Assembly: GCF_044324875.1 (NCBI RefSeq)
Contig: NZ_CP172185.1
Length of the DNA: 64,000 bases
From: Escherichia coli
GTDB lineage: Bacteria; Pseudomonadota; Gammaproteobacteria; Enterobacterales; Enterobacteriaceae
Reading direction: 5' to 3' (one strand)
The position numbers and the translations under genes were made by a program. Position 1 is the stretch's first letter. Each line of letters starts with the position of its first letter. Of this stretch, positions 3,237 to 11,168 are shown in pieces. The notes under the pieces were generated by a model. The model was not told where the DNA came from. It worked only from the letters and a program-made list of their open reading frames with translations, and searched no databases.

Positions 3237-3719
3237 TTATCGGGAAAAACCGATCGTAATGGCAGCCATCATCTTTTCAGCGAAAGAGAGAGATTCACGA
3301 TGACTGATATTCAGAGACATACAGGCTTTGTTGTACGCCACATTTTCCATGCATTCCAGGACAGGAGAGTCATGCATCTCAAGCTCTGGAAGGCGTGCCA
3401 GCAGAGCTTCCGTACTGAGGAGGGCGCTTTTGGTAATCAACTCATTGTAGCGATGGGCATGCTCACTCGCCGCCTGCGCACGTTGCCCGAAACGACATAT
3501 GAAATTACAGGCTCCGAGAACCACCACCACTGCCCCAAGCACCCAGCCGAAATGCCAGCCGGCTACGATGAACGCACCCGCCGCAAGGATCAAAATGTTG
3601 ATGATCGCATCAAGGCGACGATTGAATACCGCCGCGATGCGCTCCAGCCAGTAGCTGTACCAGAGACGGAACATGACCTCATCCCGTTCTCTCGATTTTT
3701 TACGTTGGTTGTTTTGCAT
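3237..3719 (-). CDS. Antisense-oriented two-TM membrane protein (160 aa); candidate moron
   Basis: Basic N-terminus (RKKSRER), two adjacent hydrophobic helices (IINILILAAGAFIVAGW / WVLGAVVVVLGACNFI), GAGGGA RBS; a competing plus-strand ORF 3219-3854 overlaps it. Confidence 0.4.
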   Translation of the reverse strand: MQNNQRKKSRERDEVMFRLWYSYWLERIAAVFNRRLDAIINILILAAGAFIVAGWHFGWVLGAVVVVLGACNFICRFGQRAQAASEHAHRYNELITKSALLSTEALLARLPELEMHDSPVLECMENVAYNKACMSLNISHRESLSFAEKMMAAITIGFSR

Positions 3720-3953
3720 GGTGTTTTATCCCTCATCGTCATCGCTCTGCCCCTAATCAGCGCAGAGTGCAGGGTAACCTGGCTCGTGGAATTTTTGCAG
3801 CCAGACATCTTTACCCCCGGGCGTGTTGAACAAAGTGTCCGCCAGATCCACTGAACGGCGGATTCATCAATGCTAACACGCCCTTCTTTTCCGGTTGAAG
3901 GCGAAAAAACCGGACCATTACCCCGACACAAAACAGAACAACGGAGAACAACT

Positions 3954-4508
3954 ATGCCCGCACTTAAACCTATGGGTGTATCAGGTGTACCACCGAAGCA
4001 TGTCAGAGCCTGGACACAACAGGAAGATGCTCTACTGGTCGGTTTATACCCCTCCCACACCGTACCAGAACTGACAAAACACTTTCAGAGAACCGGGCCA
4101 GCAATACGAAGCCGCATCCGTCTTTTGCTCTCTCAGGGGGTTATCCACACCAAACAACCCCCCCTGAATACAAAAGAACTCAACACGCTCATCAGGAATC
4201 GCCACACAAAAACCATCCGGGAACTCGCGAATGAACTGGGGCGCTCGACATCCACGGTGGGACTGAACCTGAGAAAAAGAGGGTACCGGTTCAGGAAATA
4301 CGGGGAACTCCACCACAGAGCCAGATACAGCGATCACCTGGTGGAGTTGGTAACTGAACTGCGCGATGAACAGGGGATGACATTCAGCGAAATCAGAAAG
4401 TACATCCGGGACATGGCCGGGATATCCCTTAAAAGATGGGTCCTCGCCCGGCTTTACGCACGATATACCGCCGCTGACACCGTGCTTTGCGAACTGCTAC
4501 CGGACTGA
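3954..4508 (+). CDS. DNA-binding protein with three tandem HTH-like repeats
   Basis: GGAGA RBS before ATG at 3954; three repeated helix-turn-helix-like segments. Confidence 0.55.
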   Translation: MPALKPMGVSGVPPKHVRAWTQQEDALLVGLYPSHTVPELTKHFQRTGPAIRSRIRLLLSQGVIHTKQPPLNTKELNTLIRNRHTKTIRELANELGRSTSTVGLNLRKRGYRFRKYGELHHRARYSDHLVELVTELRDEQGMTFSEIRKYIRDMAGISLKRWVLARLYARYTAADTVLCELLPD

Positions 4509-4828
4509 GTAACCACTATGCACACACAAAAAAACCGCTTGCCATGCCGCAATCAGTCAGGTTACATTTCCGCTGCACCTCATAAAACGGGTGCCGGGAT
4601 TGCAACCCCCGCTGACAACTACAGCGCACAACCGCGCCAGCGGTTTTTTTGTGCGTACCGTATCGCCACGTCTTTTTCGCGCCAGAATTATGGCGGGGCG
4701 TATGGGGCCGACTTCGGTCGGGCCGGTTTCTGTAGTTGCCGGTGGTTGCAACCCTGTACGTCTCGCCACCCAGAATTGCAACCTCTGGATGGTGAGTTTT
4801 CAAAACTTGCAACTACAGAGGCCACACC

Positions 4829-5053
4829 ATGGCAAACCGCAAACAACAGCGCGCATACGCTGCGCGTCGTCACATCCAGACTGAAATCAACCGCAGACTT
4901 TTCCGCGCATTCCGCGTCGCGCATATCATGCACATCAATATGCTGCATGAGCGCAGCCACGCACTGTCAAACATGTATTCCGCCGCTGTATTCAGCTACC
5001 TGGCGGATGACCTGCGCGAGCTGCAGGACCTCATTAACCAGCACCACCACTAA
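4829..5053 (+). CDS. Small hypothetical protein (74 aa)
   Basis: ORF immediately after a TTGCAAC repeat cluster; weak RBS. Confidence 0.3.
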   Translation: MANRKQQRAYAARRHIQTEINRRLFRAFRVAHIMHINMLHERSHALSNMYSAAVFSYLADDLRELQDLINQHHH

Positions 5054-8860: not shown

Positions 8861-9616
8861 TTAACGCGTTTTTTCGCTGCTTTCCACTACCGGGGGATTT
8901 TTCCTCAGTGACTCTCCCTGAAGGACCACTCGGTGTGAGTTATGTACCAGTCTGTCCAGGATGGCATCTGCTGTTGTTGGGTTCTCCATCAGACCATGCC
9001 ATTTATCTACCGGGAACTGGCTTACCACTATCGTGCTGCTTTGTCCGTAACGATCCTCTATGAGCTCCAGAAGGTCATTACACTGGGCGTTACTTAACTG
9101 TTCCAGCCCCAGATCGTCCAGGATTAGAACCTGTATTTTTTGCAACTGTTTCAGATATTTCAGCCAGCTGCCATCAACACGTCCCTGAGCCAGTTGTTCC
9201 AGTAATCGCCCGGTTCTACAGTACCGGACGCTGTGTTTCTGTCGACATGCCTGTTCGCCCAGCGCATTGGCTATCCAGCTCTTGCCACATCCTGTCGGAC
9301 CGGTTATCAGCAGGTTTTTCCTGTGGGTTATGTAGTGGCCGTTCAGCAGTTCTCTCATCTGTTCAGCCCGCAGACCTCTTGAGGCCGGATAGCGCAGCCC
9401 TTCCGGTGTTGCCTGGTATTTCAGGCCGGCATTTTTTCTCAACCGTGCCACACGGCTGTTTTCCCTGCTCAGAAGCTCGTCATCAACCAGCAGCGTCAGC
9501 CTTTCCTCGAACGACAGTTCGTCGTAGGTCTGAGGCGTTTCCCGCTGCCGTATCAGGCTCCCGGCCATCGCCGGGAGTTTCAGTTGGGTCAGTTTGTTTA
9601 ACAGGTTATCACTCAT
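8861..9616 (-). CDS. istB: IS21-family helper ATPase IstB
   Basis: Walker A GPTGCGKS; start taken at MSDNLLNKL. Confidence 0.85.
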   Translation of the reverse strand: MSDNLLNKLTQLKLPAMAGSLIRQRETPQTYDELSFEERLTLLVDDELLSRENSRVARLRKNAGLKYQATPEGLRYPASRGLRAEQMRELLNGHYITHRKNLLITGPTGCGKSWIANALGEQACRQKHSVRYCRTGRLLEQLAQGRVDGSWLKYLKQLQKIQVLILDDLGLEQLSNAQCNDLLELIEDRYGQSSTIVVSQFPVDKWHGLMENPTTADAILDRLVHNSHRVVLQGESLRKNPPVVESSEKTR

Positions 9617-9632
9617 ACTGTTGTTCCTTCTG

Positions 9633-11168
9633 TCAGTGGTAGTAGCCCGGACCACGCAGGTTTTCATGCTCTGAAGCATATGCCGGATGTTGTTCGCCCT
9701 GGCGGGATAATGGAAGCTCCAGGTTCTCCCGATGGTGACGCAGCAGATTGTCGATAAAGCGTCTGTCAGGGGCGTTATAGTGCAGGGCAACGTAACAGGC
9801 CTTTTCCAGCCGTTCCGGGCCGTATTTTTTCTGAAGTGCCAGCAGCCCCAGAACTGCACGATAAGCCAGTTCCGGATGGGGTTTTGCCTTCAGCATGGAT
9901 TCAACCACCCGGCCTGTGGACGGGCCCGTACGTTTTCCCTGCTCGATCAGGCGTTCCGGTGTCCATGTCCCGTGCTGCCGGTGGCGCTCTGGCATGTGAA
10001 GCGGATTGGTTGTGTGTTTATATTCATGTGTGCTGCGCGGATGTTGCGCCACACACTGCCCCTTGTGCCAGAGCTGTACCACCGACTGCCCCGCCTTCAG
10101 TGACAGACGCTGACCGACCAGTTCGTGTGGAACGGAGTACCAGTGACGGGCATATTCAACGTGGTAGTCAGGGCCAACCTTCACAGCTTTGTATTCCGTG
10201 TATTCATAAGGTGCCAGAGGCAGCGGAGAGAGTGCTGGCGCATCCAGTATGCGGAAGCGTTCTGCACGGGTTTGATTGCCGTACCCCTTCATTGGCCGGT
10301 TATTCATGTCTGTCAGTAACTCCCTAAGGCGCGCATTCAGCGCCCTGAGCGTGTGGAAGGTTTCATTACGGATGCGGGCAAGAAGCCATCGTTCAACGAT
10401 GAGGACGCCGTTTTCTGCTTTTGGTTTATCTTTAGGTTTGCGTGGTCGGGCCGGGATGATAACCGTGCCATAGTGCTCAGCCAGTGCCTGATAACTGTCG
10501 TTGATGACAGGCTCATATCGATCGGCCTTTTTCACTGCGCTTCTGAGGTTATCGGGGATGAGCAGCTTCGGTACGCCGCCCAGGAAGGTCAGGCAACGGC
10601 TGTGGGCATTTAACCATGACATCATGTCCTGACCTTCGCACGCTTCAACGTAGGTATAGTTGGACGCCCCCATTACGGCCACGAAGATTGCCACGCGGCG
10701 TATCTCACCGGTGTCCGGATTAATAACAGGAACCGTAGGACCACAGAAGTCGATAAAAAGCTTTTCGCCGGCACGATGCTCCTGGCGCATGGAGAGACGT
10801 CGCGTTTTTTTCCACTCCCGGTAGCAACGGCAGAAGTGCGAGTATCCCATCGCTTTGTTACCCGCCTGTGCCTTGTATTCCATCCACAACAGTTGCCGCG
10901 TCACACCTGGTTTTCTCATTTCCGTATCGAAGTACAACATGTCAGGCATTACAAGCTCTGATGCAAAGGTGTCTTTGGGCGGAAAAATGAGTTTCTCCAG
11001 CGTGTCATGGGATATATCAGCAGGTAATGGCCATGACAGAGAAGAGGCTTTGAAGCGGGCAAGAACCTCAAAAACGGTTGAGGCGCTGATGTGTAACGTC
11101 AGTCCGATACAACGGTTAGTCAGCTTCTTGTCGAACTTGAGCTGAAGGATCTTAAAACAGGTTTCCAT
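9633..11168 (-). CDS. istA: IS21-family transposase IstA
   Basis: ~512 aa from METCFKILQ; N-terminal HTH and integrase-like catalytic core typical of IstA. Confidence 0.85.
   Translation of the reverse strand: METCFKILQLKFDKKLTNRCIGLTLHISASTVFEVLARFKASSLSWPLPADISHDTLEKLIFPPKDTFASELVMPDMLYFDTEMRKPGVTRQLLWMEYKAQAGNKAMGYSHFCRCYREWKKTRRLSMRQEHRAGEKLFIDFCGPTVPVINPDTGEIRRVAIFVAVMGASNYTYVEACEGQDMMSWLNAHSRCLTFLGGVPKLLIPDNLRSAVKKADRYEPVINDSYQALAEHYGTVIIPARPRKPKDKPKAENGVLIVERWLLARIRNETFHTLRALNARLRELLTDMNNRPMKGYGNQTRAERFRILDAPALSPLPLAPYEYTEYKAVKVGPDYHVEYARHWYSVPHELVGQRLSLKAGQSVVQLWHKGQCVAQHPRSTHEYKHTTNPLHMPERHRQHGTWTPERLIEQGKRTGPSTGRVVESMLKAKPHPELAYRAVLGLLALQKKYGPERLEKACYVALHYNAPDRRFIDNLLRHHRENLELPLSRQGEQHPAYASEHENLRGPGYYH

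Follow-up and report, generated by a model that had tools for sequence, protein, structure and literature searches.

The early operon of a P2-like (Xuanwuvirus/P88-type) prophage in the window, the stretch of 64,000 nucleotides of Escherichia coli DNA analysed here, contains a gene at 3954..4508 (+) for a protein of 184 amino acids. The locus raises the question of how this protein is built, what it may do, and whether it acts on the cluster of TTGCAAC words next to its gene. An earlier note had described it as an early gene of a P2-type prophage whose product consists of three tandem helix-turn-helix (HTH)-like segments of about 40 residues, an architecture considered unusual for such a gene, and had implied a tie to the adjacent words. 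The placement in a P2-type early operon agrees with the gene order, in which the C repressor and Cox come first, the three-HTH gene later and gpA later still.

The reading frame begins with ATG at 3954, its stop codon ends at 4508, and the product has a pI of 10.3. A Shine-Dalgarno sequence, GGAG, was read off the sequence at 3943..3946 (+), 7 nt before the ATG, and orthologues use the same start methionine. The dN/dS among alleles is 0.12-0.32, and the gene is therefore coding and under constraint. ORF call, GGAG, orthologue start and dN/dS together confirm the 184-aa frame beside the TTGCAAC cluster as a genuine gene under purifying selection. Strains NRZ14408 and TUM9803 match the window with 100% identity over 1.1 kb (3800-4900). 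RefSeq/PGAP gives the product name 'DNA-binding protein'. The 212-aa RefSeq/PGAP form from ATG 3870 was rejected, as it has neither a good ribosome-binding site nor the backing of orthologues.

The AlphaFold2 model (mean pLDDT 81.6) is all helix, with no strands, and contains three tri-helical bundles. The pTM is 0.53, and the mutual placement of the three domains is therefore undefined in the model. The N-terminal tail (aa 1-16; 4002 being the first base after it, 3954..4001, +) carries the conserved motif L.PMG.PG..P.H and is predicted to be unstructured (pLDDT 51-67). Repeat 1 (R1; aa 17-66, 4002..4151, +) is a Myb/SANT-like three-helix unit that carries WTQQED, with helices at 22-34, 37-44 and 48-60, the last being the putative recognition helix. 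Repeat 2 (R2; aa 67-119, 4152..4310, +) is the most basic unit, with helices at 73-82, 88-95 and 99-108 and the HTH at aa 88-108; it gives sub-threshold Pfam matches to HTH_24, MerR_1 and HTH_11, and a basic linker, RKRGYRFRKYG, comes after it. Repeat 3 (R3; aa 120-184, 4311..4505, +) is a divergent HTH unit with a net charge of about 0, helices at 127-138, 144-155 and 161-169, and an extra C-terminal helix at 173-181. Assigned to it is the most conserved stretch of the family, K115.G117..H..T.Y.D..V.L...LRD. Helices 2 and 3 of each bundle form an HTH, as is characteristic of Myb/SANT-like repeats. Structure prediction had been named beforehand as the check on the three-HTH reading, with a lack of HTH folds counting against it; AlphaFold2 gave three HTH-type bundles instead.

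Single-sequence local alignments of R1, R2 and R3 against shuffles were not significant (z 0.3, -0.1 and 1.3). Family profiles built from 38 sequences and compared in register with hhalign gave 99.1% probability (E 8.6e-19) for R1 (aa 15-66) against R2 (67-119), 94.4% (E 8.6e-8) for R1 against R3 (120-184) and 93.7% (E 1.9e-7) for R2 against R3. The observed profile scores were 78, 36 and 34, versus 8 +/- 1.7 (maximum 14.5) for column-shuffled targets. These comparisons show that the three units, each of about 50 aa, are mutually homologous. The repeat is visible only with family profiles and not from the single sequence. The description as three tandem HTH-like segments was thus borne out by the model and by profile homology together; the length of about 40 residues was an underestimate.

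Across the family the mean net charge is +2.7 for R1, +6.5 for R2 and about 0 for R3. Variation is greatest in the third helices, and conservation is greatest in the N-tail, the R2-R3 linker and helix 1 of R3.

Fold and family matches of the units were sought at several levels. The three-HTH protein alone gave only weak matches among PDB sequences, to designed helical proteins (E >= 0.3), and nothing in Pfam or NCBIfam reached the curated cut-offs. With the family profile, PDB sequences matched include c-Myb (E 2e-7), Cbp1 (E 3.7e-6, spanning R1-R2, aa 30-112 to 14-104) and the Mos1 HTH, the last with R2. Foldseek matches of the model were the Tc3 bipartite domain, Pax6, Reb1 and Cbp1, and the GcrA DNA-binding domain superposes on single units at 1.4 A. 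The units thus resemble Myb/SANT repeats, the GcrA DNA-binding domain, Cbp1 and the Tc3/paired-type HTHs. The Pfam Myb models (PF00249 / PF13921) did not match the protein of the window even at E <= 10, below any gathering threshold. Among orthologues, 9 of 32 match Pfam Myb_DNA-binding at E <= 1e-3, and one (P0020) scores 26.2 bits for Pfam Myb against a cut-off of 24.4. The kinship with Myb/SANT repeats is remote and holds at the level of the family. A regular tryptophan or aromatic triad per repeat was not found; W20 alone is invariant and occupies the first position of R1, the matching positions of R2 and R3 hold L or Y, and later core positions are aliphatic.

Each of the known proteins is similar in part only. 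Like c-Myb R1R2R3, the phage protein has three consecutive three-helix units, each about 50 aa long, and its R1 starts with W-x-x-E-E-D; it differs in its strongly divergent, neutral R3 and in its bacterial or phage origin. Cbp1 of Sulfolobus (PDB 2lvs) is likewise a small free-standing protein of consecutive HTH units with basic linkers and also matches in fold, but it is an archaeal chromosomal protein that binds CRISPR repeats. GcrA (PDB 5yiu) has a C-terminal sigma-70-binding domain that is absent here, and the protein does not belong to the GcrA family (PF07750): no orthologue (0/32) matched Pfam GcrA at E <= 1e-3. Pfam GcrA matches are present in long multi-repeat relatives. The Tc3/Mos1 transposases and Pax paired domains have bipartite HTHs, and the phage protein lacks the catalytic domain of the transposases. 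The name 'AsnC family protein', given by NCBI to Salmonella and Klebsiella orthologues, is a misnomer. Membership in AsnC/Lrp, a family defined by an N-terminal HTH and a C-terminal alpha/beta RAM (ligand-binding) domain, was rejected: the model is without strands, there is no AsnC_trans_reg domain, and an HTH_AsnC-type motif occurs in only 5/32 members. No literature on the three-HTH family was found in a search on its accessions, phrog_323 and Myb-like phage HTH repeats.

A further link is to D5 of phage T5. The protein of the window matches phrog_323, 'transcriptional regulator, D5-like', with E 2.4e-27, and is placed in that group by profile match; its orthologues match with E 6e-25 to 6e-58 and T5 D5 itself with E 1.2e-71. 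The family profile, aa 11-123, aligns to D5 128-245 (94.7%, E 6e-8). Profile alignment shows a remote homology of units 1 and 2 to D5; the full-length architecture of D5 was not found, as only R1-R2 align. D5 (T5.118, AAS77164.1) is likewise an early phage protein made solely of tandem Myb/sigma-r4-like HTH units. It differs in having 255 aa and, by eye, about four units, and in lacking the conserved N-tail, R2-R3 linker and R3 signature of the three-HTH family. In the annotation of the T5 record, D5 binds DNA, is needed for replication as well as for late transcription, and has a part in shutoff; its gene lies in the T5 replication cluster. D5 is essential in virulent T5, whereas temperate P2-like and Mu-like phages carry the three-HTH gene as a dispensable cassette. 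The similarity spans only two units and could come from a common type of repeat without a common role.

The gene is absent from P2 and from P88, where another gene precedes the same isrK module, and full-length copies were found in only 3/50,697 deposited phage records. As a cassette it recurs in E. coli, Salmonella, Klebsiella/Raoultella, Citrobacter and Hafnia prophages. It is always on the early-operon strand and late in the operon, in P2-like and Mu-like prophages alike; in the latter it lies between gam/gp12 and gemA/mor. Multi-HTH proteins of similar kind are common in phages. The verdict 'unusual for a P2-type early gene' accordingly holds against P2, P88 and the deposited phage records but not against Enterobacterales prophages, in which the gene is a mobile accessory cassette of P2-like and Mu-like elements. 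As it stands, the result is an improvement of annotation and not a surprise: a family with members in numerous E. coli, Salmonella and Klebsiella prophages, known under generic or wrong database names ('DNA-binding protein', 'AsnC family protein') receives a domain-level description as three Myb/SANT/GcrA-type HTH units with remote kinship to D5.

As to function, the reading preferred here, held tentatively and at somewhat less than an even chance, is that the gene is non-essential and mobile and that its early-operon product attaches to double-stranded DNA through three Myb/SANT/GcrA-type HTH units, which form a flexible, probably monomeric array. Basic R1 and R2 would put their third helices into successive major grooves, and the basic linkers would track the DNA backbone, an arrangement known from c-Myb R2R3, from Cbp1 and from the Tc3 and paired domains. 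The linker to R3 and R3 itself, neutral but most conserved, may together with the conserved N-tail touch a conserved phage or host partner. Occupancy of phage or host DNA during lytic growth would modulate access for transcription or replication, and the protein might be a compact temperate-phage counterpart of T5 D5. Its action would not run through the neighbouring TTGCAAC words. The high pI, the basic R1-R2 and the c-Myb, Cbp1 and D5 matches speak for DNA binding; against it, SANT-type units can bind protein rather than DNA.

An alternative is that the protein is a host-takeover or counter-defence adaptor, whose conserved N-tail, linker and R3 mainly bind a conserved host or phage protein and tether it to DNA or block it. 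The gene would then be one of the variable anti-defence genes that temperate phages carry in their early regions. The patchy, mobile distribution over the unrelated P2-like and Mu-like phage types is consistent with this, as is the finding that the recognition helices are not the most conserved parts. Anti-defence or modification cargo lies nearby in some loci, namely Dam methyltransferase, PAPS-reductase-like, Tad2-like and Acb2/Tad1-like proteins and a dATP/dGTP pyrophosphohydrolase, but these neighbour associations vary between loci. PADLOC returned 0 matches for the three-HTH protein and four neighbours, with a library that holds defence and not anti-defence proteins. DNA binding is favoured instead by the strongly basic character of R1-R2 and by the homology to D5 and Cbp1, and the adaptor is considered unlikely.

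Position in the operon suggests a different partner. In every P2-like prophage with the three-HTH gene, the gpA block follows shortly downstream of it, and translational coupling is suggested by Klebsiella prophages, in which the stop codon of the three-HTH gene and the start of gpA overlap (4546 vs 4549). With the place of D5 in the T5 replication cluster and its annotation as required for replication, this would fit an accessory to gpA, the initiator of rolling-circle replication, in which a D5-like protein on duplex DNA aids origin use or replisome assembly. Replication of P88 and P2 proceeds without the gene, however, and the Mu-like prophages that carry it have no gpA. The gpA proteins of Shae_phiSM-type loci with the gene (L002, L018-L024) are 48-51% identical to gpA of the window and that of P88 is 51% identical; gene presence therefore does not obviously track gpA type. 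The region upstream of gpA is, moreover, a general cargo site. P2 gpB was rejected as a homologue or positional analogue of the three-HTH protein (hhalign probability 0.1%, E 0.46). A role as gpA accessory is thus improbable.

Also improbable, and slightly more so, is a fuller equivalence to D5, in which the protein would be a compact counterpart that coats duplex DNA or reads a mark on it, with R1-R2 on DNA and the conserved N-tail, linker and R3 recruiting or blocking a conserved host factor, and in this way would switch host or phage transcription and replication while P2-like and Mu-like phages grow lytically. The Dam-dependent m6A mark is a possible candidate in such a reading, since the units resemble GcrA and a phage Dam gene is repeatedly seen in translational coupling with the three-HTH gene.

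GcrA prefers m6A-marked DNA. The protein might accordingly be a reader linked to DNA modification, a GcrA-like HTH array that recognizes methylated or modified DNA together with the adjacent phage Dam or PAPS-reductase-like enzyme of other lineages. A Dam gene lies directly upstream with overlapping stop and start codons in three lineages, close by in Klebsiella prophages and downstream in one further locus (L031), and a PAPS_reduct gene lies directly downstream in Salmonella loci. The superposition of the GcrA domain and the Pfam GcrA matches of the long relatives point the same way. In the prophage of the window and in most loci of Xuanwuvirus type, no methyltransferase gene is adjacent, the orthologues themselves lack Pfam GcrA matches at the threshold given above, and Dam is common in this region of P2-like phages, where adjacency may be positional only; the reader is very unlikely. 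Should the D5-like or the methyl-reader idea prove true, the protein would be a small, tractable model of how HTH arrays of temperate phages reprogram DNA transactions.

The TTGCAAC words themselves begin at 4600, 4746, 4776 and 4807, 90-300 nt downstream of the three-HTH gene and within 210 nt. Over the whole window the word was found 10 times against 15.5 expected; it is not over-represented, and therefore only the local cluster is notable. The cluster coincides with two RNAs and their targets. An A7CCGC segment occupies 4528-4538. A sigma-70-like isrK promoter (4539..4568, +; TTGCCA, an 18-nt spacer and TACATT), kept in P88, which has no HTH gene, precedes the isrK sRNA (4575..4650, +). The latter contains element b1, TTGCAAC, at 4600-4606, element a1, CAACTACAG, at 4616-4624 and an intrinsic terminator at 4630-4650. 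The C4-type antisense RNA (4686..4773, +) carries a' (TCTGTAGTTGC, 4729-4739) in the loop of hairpin 2 and b' (GGTTGCAACC, 4744-4753) as a junction element. The target sites (4774..4821, +) are b2 (AATTGCAACC, 4774-4783) and a2 (GCAACTACAGA, 4809-4819). Antisense pairing at a2 is 11/11 complementary, and a2 overlaps the Shine-Dalgarno sequence AGAGG (4817-4821) of an epsilon-like 'derepression protein' gene (4829..5053, +; 74 aa, Pfam PF25738). Both RNAs belong to known Rfam families, isrK (RF01394) with 60.1 bits against a gathering score of 50 and C4 (RF01695) with 80.1 bits against 45; in loci L015-L031 they were judged only by sequence pattern.

The four words lie inside, or directly 3' of, isrK and C4, where they occupy the loop of isrK, the junction of C4 and both target sites. 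Both antisense elements covary as complementary words across six alleles. In the five other alleles TTGGAAC, TTTCCAC, TTACCAC and CTGCAAC replace TTGCAAC with mutual complementarity kept, and the second word set (CAACTACAG, CAACCAAAG, CTATACACG, CTACAAGAG) also stays complementary. The words differ among alleles yet remain complementary, which is the signature of RNA-RNA pairing. Gene and module also occur separately: P88 has the isrK module without the HTH gene, and the HTH gene occurs without the module in four other contexts, including Dam/PAPS-reductase/gpA and Mu-like ones. To judge by this pattern, the cluster is part of a separate, already known antisense-RNA switch and not an operator array, and the tie between protein and words implied at the outset is not supported.

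That the three-HTH protein regulates the adjacent locus by binding the words as an operator array could be argued from the short distance (isrK starts 66 nt after the gene, and in Xuanwuvirus-type prophages there is usually no other ORF between the gene and the module) and from the four words within 210 nt, but it is scarcely credible, as the covariation of the words is that of RNA complements and does not follow the protein alleles: the proteins of the window and of L027 are 51% identical, yet both loci have TTGCA, and TTTCCAC is common to L009 and to P88, which has no such protein. TTGCAAC as the operator of the protein was rejected from co-occurrence and covariation. The gene is set apart from the isrK/C4 switch, and TTGCAAC therefore need not be tested as its operator.

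IsrK has been described as governing the translation of a downstream anti-repressor via RNA pairing (PMC4825925); that paper makes no mention of P1, C4 RNA, immI or Rfam. The module of the window resembles the immunity module c4-icd-ant of P1/P7 and isrK-orf45-anrP of Gifsy-1 in having two antisense elements, each matched upstream (in isrK) and downstream, with one target overlapping the Shine-Dalgarno sequence of an anti-repressor-type gene. It differs from both in that the controlled gene encodes a P4-epsilon-like 'derepression' protein (PF25738) and that the element is a P2-like prophage.

The HTH gene, an early-operon gene at positions 3954-4508 on the forward strand, encodes a protein of 184 aa with a pI of 10.3. 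The RefSeq/PGAP model starts at ATG 3870 and gives a 212-aa 'DNA-binding protein' (WP_249546548), and the databases contain both versions. A GGAG lies 7 nt before ATG 3954 and all orthologues start at the equivalent methionine (MxLKPMG...); the upstream ATG lacks a comparable ribosome-binding site and orthologue support. Both lines of evidence favour ATG 3954 over 3870 as the probable start. The alleles compared differ with dN/dS values of 0.12-0.32, which identifies the HTH gene as a functional coding gene under purifying selection.

The gene neighbourhood is that of a P2-like prophage, which identical DNA in complete E. coli genomes locates beside dmsA; the nearest deposited phages are the Xuanwuvirus members Citrobacter phage Shae_phiSM and Escherichia phage P88. 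The integrase, seen in an E. coli copy of this identical DNA, is first in the gene order, followed in the window by an HTH_3 repressor, Cox, DUF4761, DUF4754, small ORFs and the HTH gene. Downstream are a 'derepression protein' gene, a 137-aa ORF and the 836-aa gpA replication endonuclease gene. Just upstream of the HTH gene, a 160-aa ORF (3237-3719) is inserted in the early operon on the opposite strand. It encodes two hydrophobic helices (by eye), matches phrog_6315 (function not assigned, E 5e-65), has no match in Pfam or PADLOC, and looks like a moron; it was found in window-type loci (L001, L015-L017) and L009 and is missing from the other loci compared. A few hundred bases past gpA, an IstB_IS21 ATPase ORF (8861-9859, reverse strand, Pfam E 2.4e-60) points to insertion of an IS21-family element into the prophage; strain TUM9803, with an otherwise identical prophage, has other small ORFs in its place. 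Far from the HTH gene lie a tRNA-Ser(GGA) (53809-53896), an RtT element (53940-54074) and a single 28-nt CRISPR-DR4-like match (54176-54203, reverse strand).

The segments R1, R2 and R3 of the single protein, aligned pairwise, scored no better than shuffles. When a 38-sequence alignment was divided at aa 15-66, 67-119 and 120-184 and the profiles were compared by hhalign, the three units aligned in register (R1/R2 99.1%, E 8.6e-19; R1/R3 94.4%, E 8.6e-8; R2/R3 93.7%, E 1.9e-7), with scores of 78, 36 and 34 against 8 +/- 1.7 (maximum 14.5) for column-shuffled targets. At the family level the tandem repeat is clear from these profiles. Independent evidence in the same direction came from exhaustive HMMER searching of 1.84 billion representatives: aa ~17-112 hit many longer proteins at several distinct places each, often 3-8. 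An 807-aa helicase fusion contains about nine WTxEED...LGRS units (Pfam Myb_DNA-binding, E 2e-41). Long proteins (300-800 aa; P0023, P0030, P0031 and P0038-P0040) built of 4-9 or more WTxEED...LGRT copies form a large set from genomes and metagenomes, one carrying a DEAD/Helicase_C helicase fusion.

Structure prediction, which the earlier note had proposed as a check, gave three three-helix bundles. The AlphaFold2 model (16-sequence alignment, mean pLDDT 81.6, pTM 0.53) places helices at 22-34, 37-44 and 48-60 in R1, at 73-82, 88-95 and 99-108 in R2, and at 127-138, 144-155 and 161-169 in R3, plus an additional helix at 173-181. Profiles, HMMER and model together confirm the repeat: the three tandem HTH-like units claimed in that note are present, with a length of about 50 residues instead of 40. 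Against PDB sequences, a 32-sequence family profile matched c-Myb on R1 (E 2e-7), Cbp1 (2lvs) across R1-R2 (E 3.7e-6) and the Mos1 transposase HTH on R2; Cbp1, a CRISPR-repeat-binding protein of Sulfolobus, is likewise a multi-HTH protein. Foldseek against the PDB ranked the bipartite Tc3 domain first, followed by Pax6, Reb1 and Cbp1. The query stayed below every Pfam gathering score; searched one by one, the 32 orthologues gave HTH_11 in 13, HTH_24 in 11, and Sigma70_r4_2, HTH_23 and Myb_DNA-binding in 9 each. Comparable multi-HTH proteins occur in many phages in BFVD, free-standing or as DNA-binding modules of HNH or other endonucleases (cf. phrog_1891).

Among PHROGs the best match was to phrog_323 ('transcriptional regulator, D5-like'; E 2.4e-27, orthologues 6e-25 to 6e-58), which the 255-aa T5 D5 protein matches at E 1.2e-71. 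D5 is made early and in abundance, and its binding to duplex DNA is cooperative. The T5 record annotates it as 'DNA-binding protein; required for DNA replication and late transcription; also involved in shutoff...'. The likeness is limited to R1-R2, aa 11-123 aligning with D5 128-245 (hhalign 94.7%, E 6e-8); D5 has about four HTH units (by eye), as opposed to three, and lacks the HTH family's own signature.

Weighted column entropy over 33 orthologues was highest in the three putative recognition helices (2.1-2.7 bits). The most conserved parts were the N-terminal tail (L.PMG.PG..P.H, 1.46 bits), the R2-R3 linker (G.S..K.G..H..T.Y, 1.62 bits) and R3 helix 1 (D..V.L...LRD, 1.19 bits); W20, D25, R46, K115, G117 and D127 are invariant in 32 sequences. 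The mean net charge in the family is +2.7 in R1, +6.5 in R2 and about 0 in R3. We infer a division of labour in which R1-R2 would be the basic DNA-binding core and tail, linker and R3 a conserved surface, presumably serving something constant between phages.

Full-length relatives are rare among deposited phage genomes (3 of 50,697 records by tblastn: Shae_phiSM and a Mu-like element within two Stx phage records) and common among prophages. The exact protein is found on >130 contigs, its sister clusters hold 313-466 member sequences, and at least 80% of a 1.1-kb query is present in 61 of 5,426 complete E. coli genomes. Source records name E. coli, Salmonella, Klebsiella/Raoultella and Hafnia as hosts, in addition to Citrobacter, the host of Shae_phiSM. 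In Xuanwuvirus-type prophages the HTH gene is the last ORF ahead of isrK-C4-derepression-orf137-gpA, and the gene upstream of it varies (orf82, Ea22-like, reverse-strand 2-TM gene, P88 'lipoprotein'). In other P2-like lineages the HTH gene comes right after a Dam methyltransferase gene, whose stop overlaps its start, and is followed by a PAPS-reductase-like gene, a derepression gene or gpA itself. DNA-modification flanks or gpA overlap were noted in loci L005-L007, L012, L013, L031 and L036-L038. The HTH gene stop overlaps the gpA start in Klebsiella prophages, the gene lies between gam/gp12 and gemA/mor in Mu-like prophages, and on one other contig it adjoins Tad2-like and Acb2/Tad1-like genes. 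P88 has kept the isrK module with a different gene ahead of it and no HTH gene, its conservation with the window picking up exactly at cacaaaaaaaccgcTTGCCA, 50 nt ahead of isrK; P2 has no HTH gene either. The varied contexts and the absence from P88 and P2 mark the HTH gene as a mobile, dispensable early-operon cassette. The architecture is already known from tandem Myb/SANT-type HTH DNA-binding proteins, with T5 D5 as a phage example, and NCBI labels some family members 'SANT/Myb-like DNA-binding domain-containing protein'; new are the demonstrated homology of all three units, the family-specific tail/linker/R3 signature, the link to D5 and the cassette behaviour.

The reading tentatively preferred, at somewhat under an even chance, is that of an accessory early-operon duplex-DNA binder. 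Its R1-R2 part would be D5-like within a flexible array of three HTH units reading the groove in tandem as a monomer; binding to phage or host DNA would modulate transcription or replication, and the conserved surface that does not bind DNA would serve for contact with a partner. A role as adaptor in host takeover or counter-defence is an unlikely alternative. A replication helper for gpA is a little less probable again: the two genes are adjacent, with one case of coupling, but the HTH gene is absent from P88 and P2 and present in Mu-like phages, and its product has no homology to gpB. It is improbable that the protein is a reader tied to Dam or PAPS-reductase DNA modification.

Downstream of the HTH gene, Rfam identifies isrK (4575-4650, 60.1 bits, gathering score 50) and the C4 antisense RNA (4686-4773, 80.1 bits, gathering score 45); a sigma-70-like promoter (4539-4568) agrees with the isrK 5' end. 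The TTGCAAC words lie in the loop of isrK hairpin 2 (4600), at the C4 junction within the palindromic GGTTGCAACC (4746), immediately 3' of C4 (4776), and at 4807, abutting GCAACTACAGA (4809-4819). The latter is complementary at 11/11 positions to the C4 hairpin-2 loop (4729-4739) and overlaps the Shine-Dalgarno AGAGG of the 74-aa derepression gene (ATG 4829). In the P1/P7 c4 system, the antisense elements a' and b' pair to a1, b1 and a2, b2. Over six alleles (window, Shae_phiSM, P88 and three prophages) both word sets vary, each identical between isrK and the downstream copy and reverse-complementary in C4; a single-base difference occurs in the second-set word of isrK in prophage locus L013. 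The first set comprises TTGCAAC/GTTGCAA, TTGGAAC/GTTCCAA, TTTCCAC/GTGGAAA, TTACCAC/GTGGTAA and CTGCAAC/GTTGCAG, and the second CAACTACAG/CTGTAGTTG, CAACCAAAG/CTTTGGTTG, CTATACACG/CGTGTATAG and CTACAAGAG/CTCTTGTAG. This covariation resembles the P1/P7 c4 immunity types, and by analogy the pattern is that of c4 logic. Since its words are shared with the downstream site and reverse-complementary to C4, IsrK looks like the upstream (a1/b1) copy or a decoy for C4. The module agrees with the published role of IsrK, in which RNA pairing controls translation of a downstream anti-repressor (PMC4825925), the controlled gene here being a P4-epsilon-like derepression protein (PF25738); that paper does not mention P1, C4 RNA, immI or Rfam. 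The unit of isrK, C4 and derepression gene start (4575-4831) also occurs in loci L002, L003, L008, L009 and L013.

RNA pairing, covariation and non-co-occurrence fully explain the repeats without the HTH protein, and the link implied earlier between protein and TTGCAAC cluster is not supported. Binding of TTGCAAC as operator is very improbable: P88 has the module without the gene, Dam/PAPS/gpA, Mu-like and other contexts have the gene without the module, and the words do not follow the protein alleles (window and L027 proteins are 51% identical and both have TTGCA; P88 and L009 share TTTCCAC).

A 21-nt long-range inverted repeat (4522-4542 and 4636-4656, 90% complementary) lets A7CCGC, which lies upstream of the promoter of isrK, pair with GCGGU7 in its terminator. 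In the predicted fold of a transcript from upstream (4515-4660), this helix replaces the terminator hairpin (-55.9 kcal/mol, z -5.6); in one from the isrK start, the terminator forms. The helix may be a built-in antiterminator that allows transcripts from the early operon to extend as far as gpA. Every locus examined, P88 included, has kept the A-tract.
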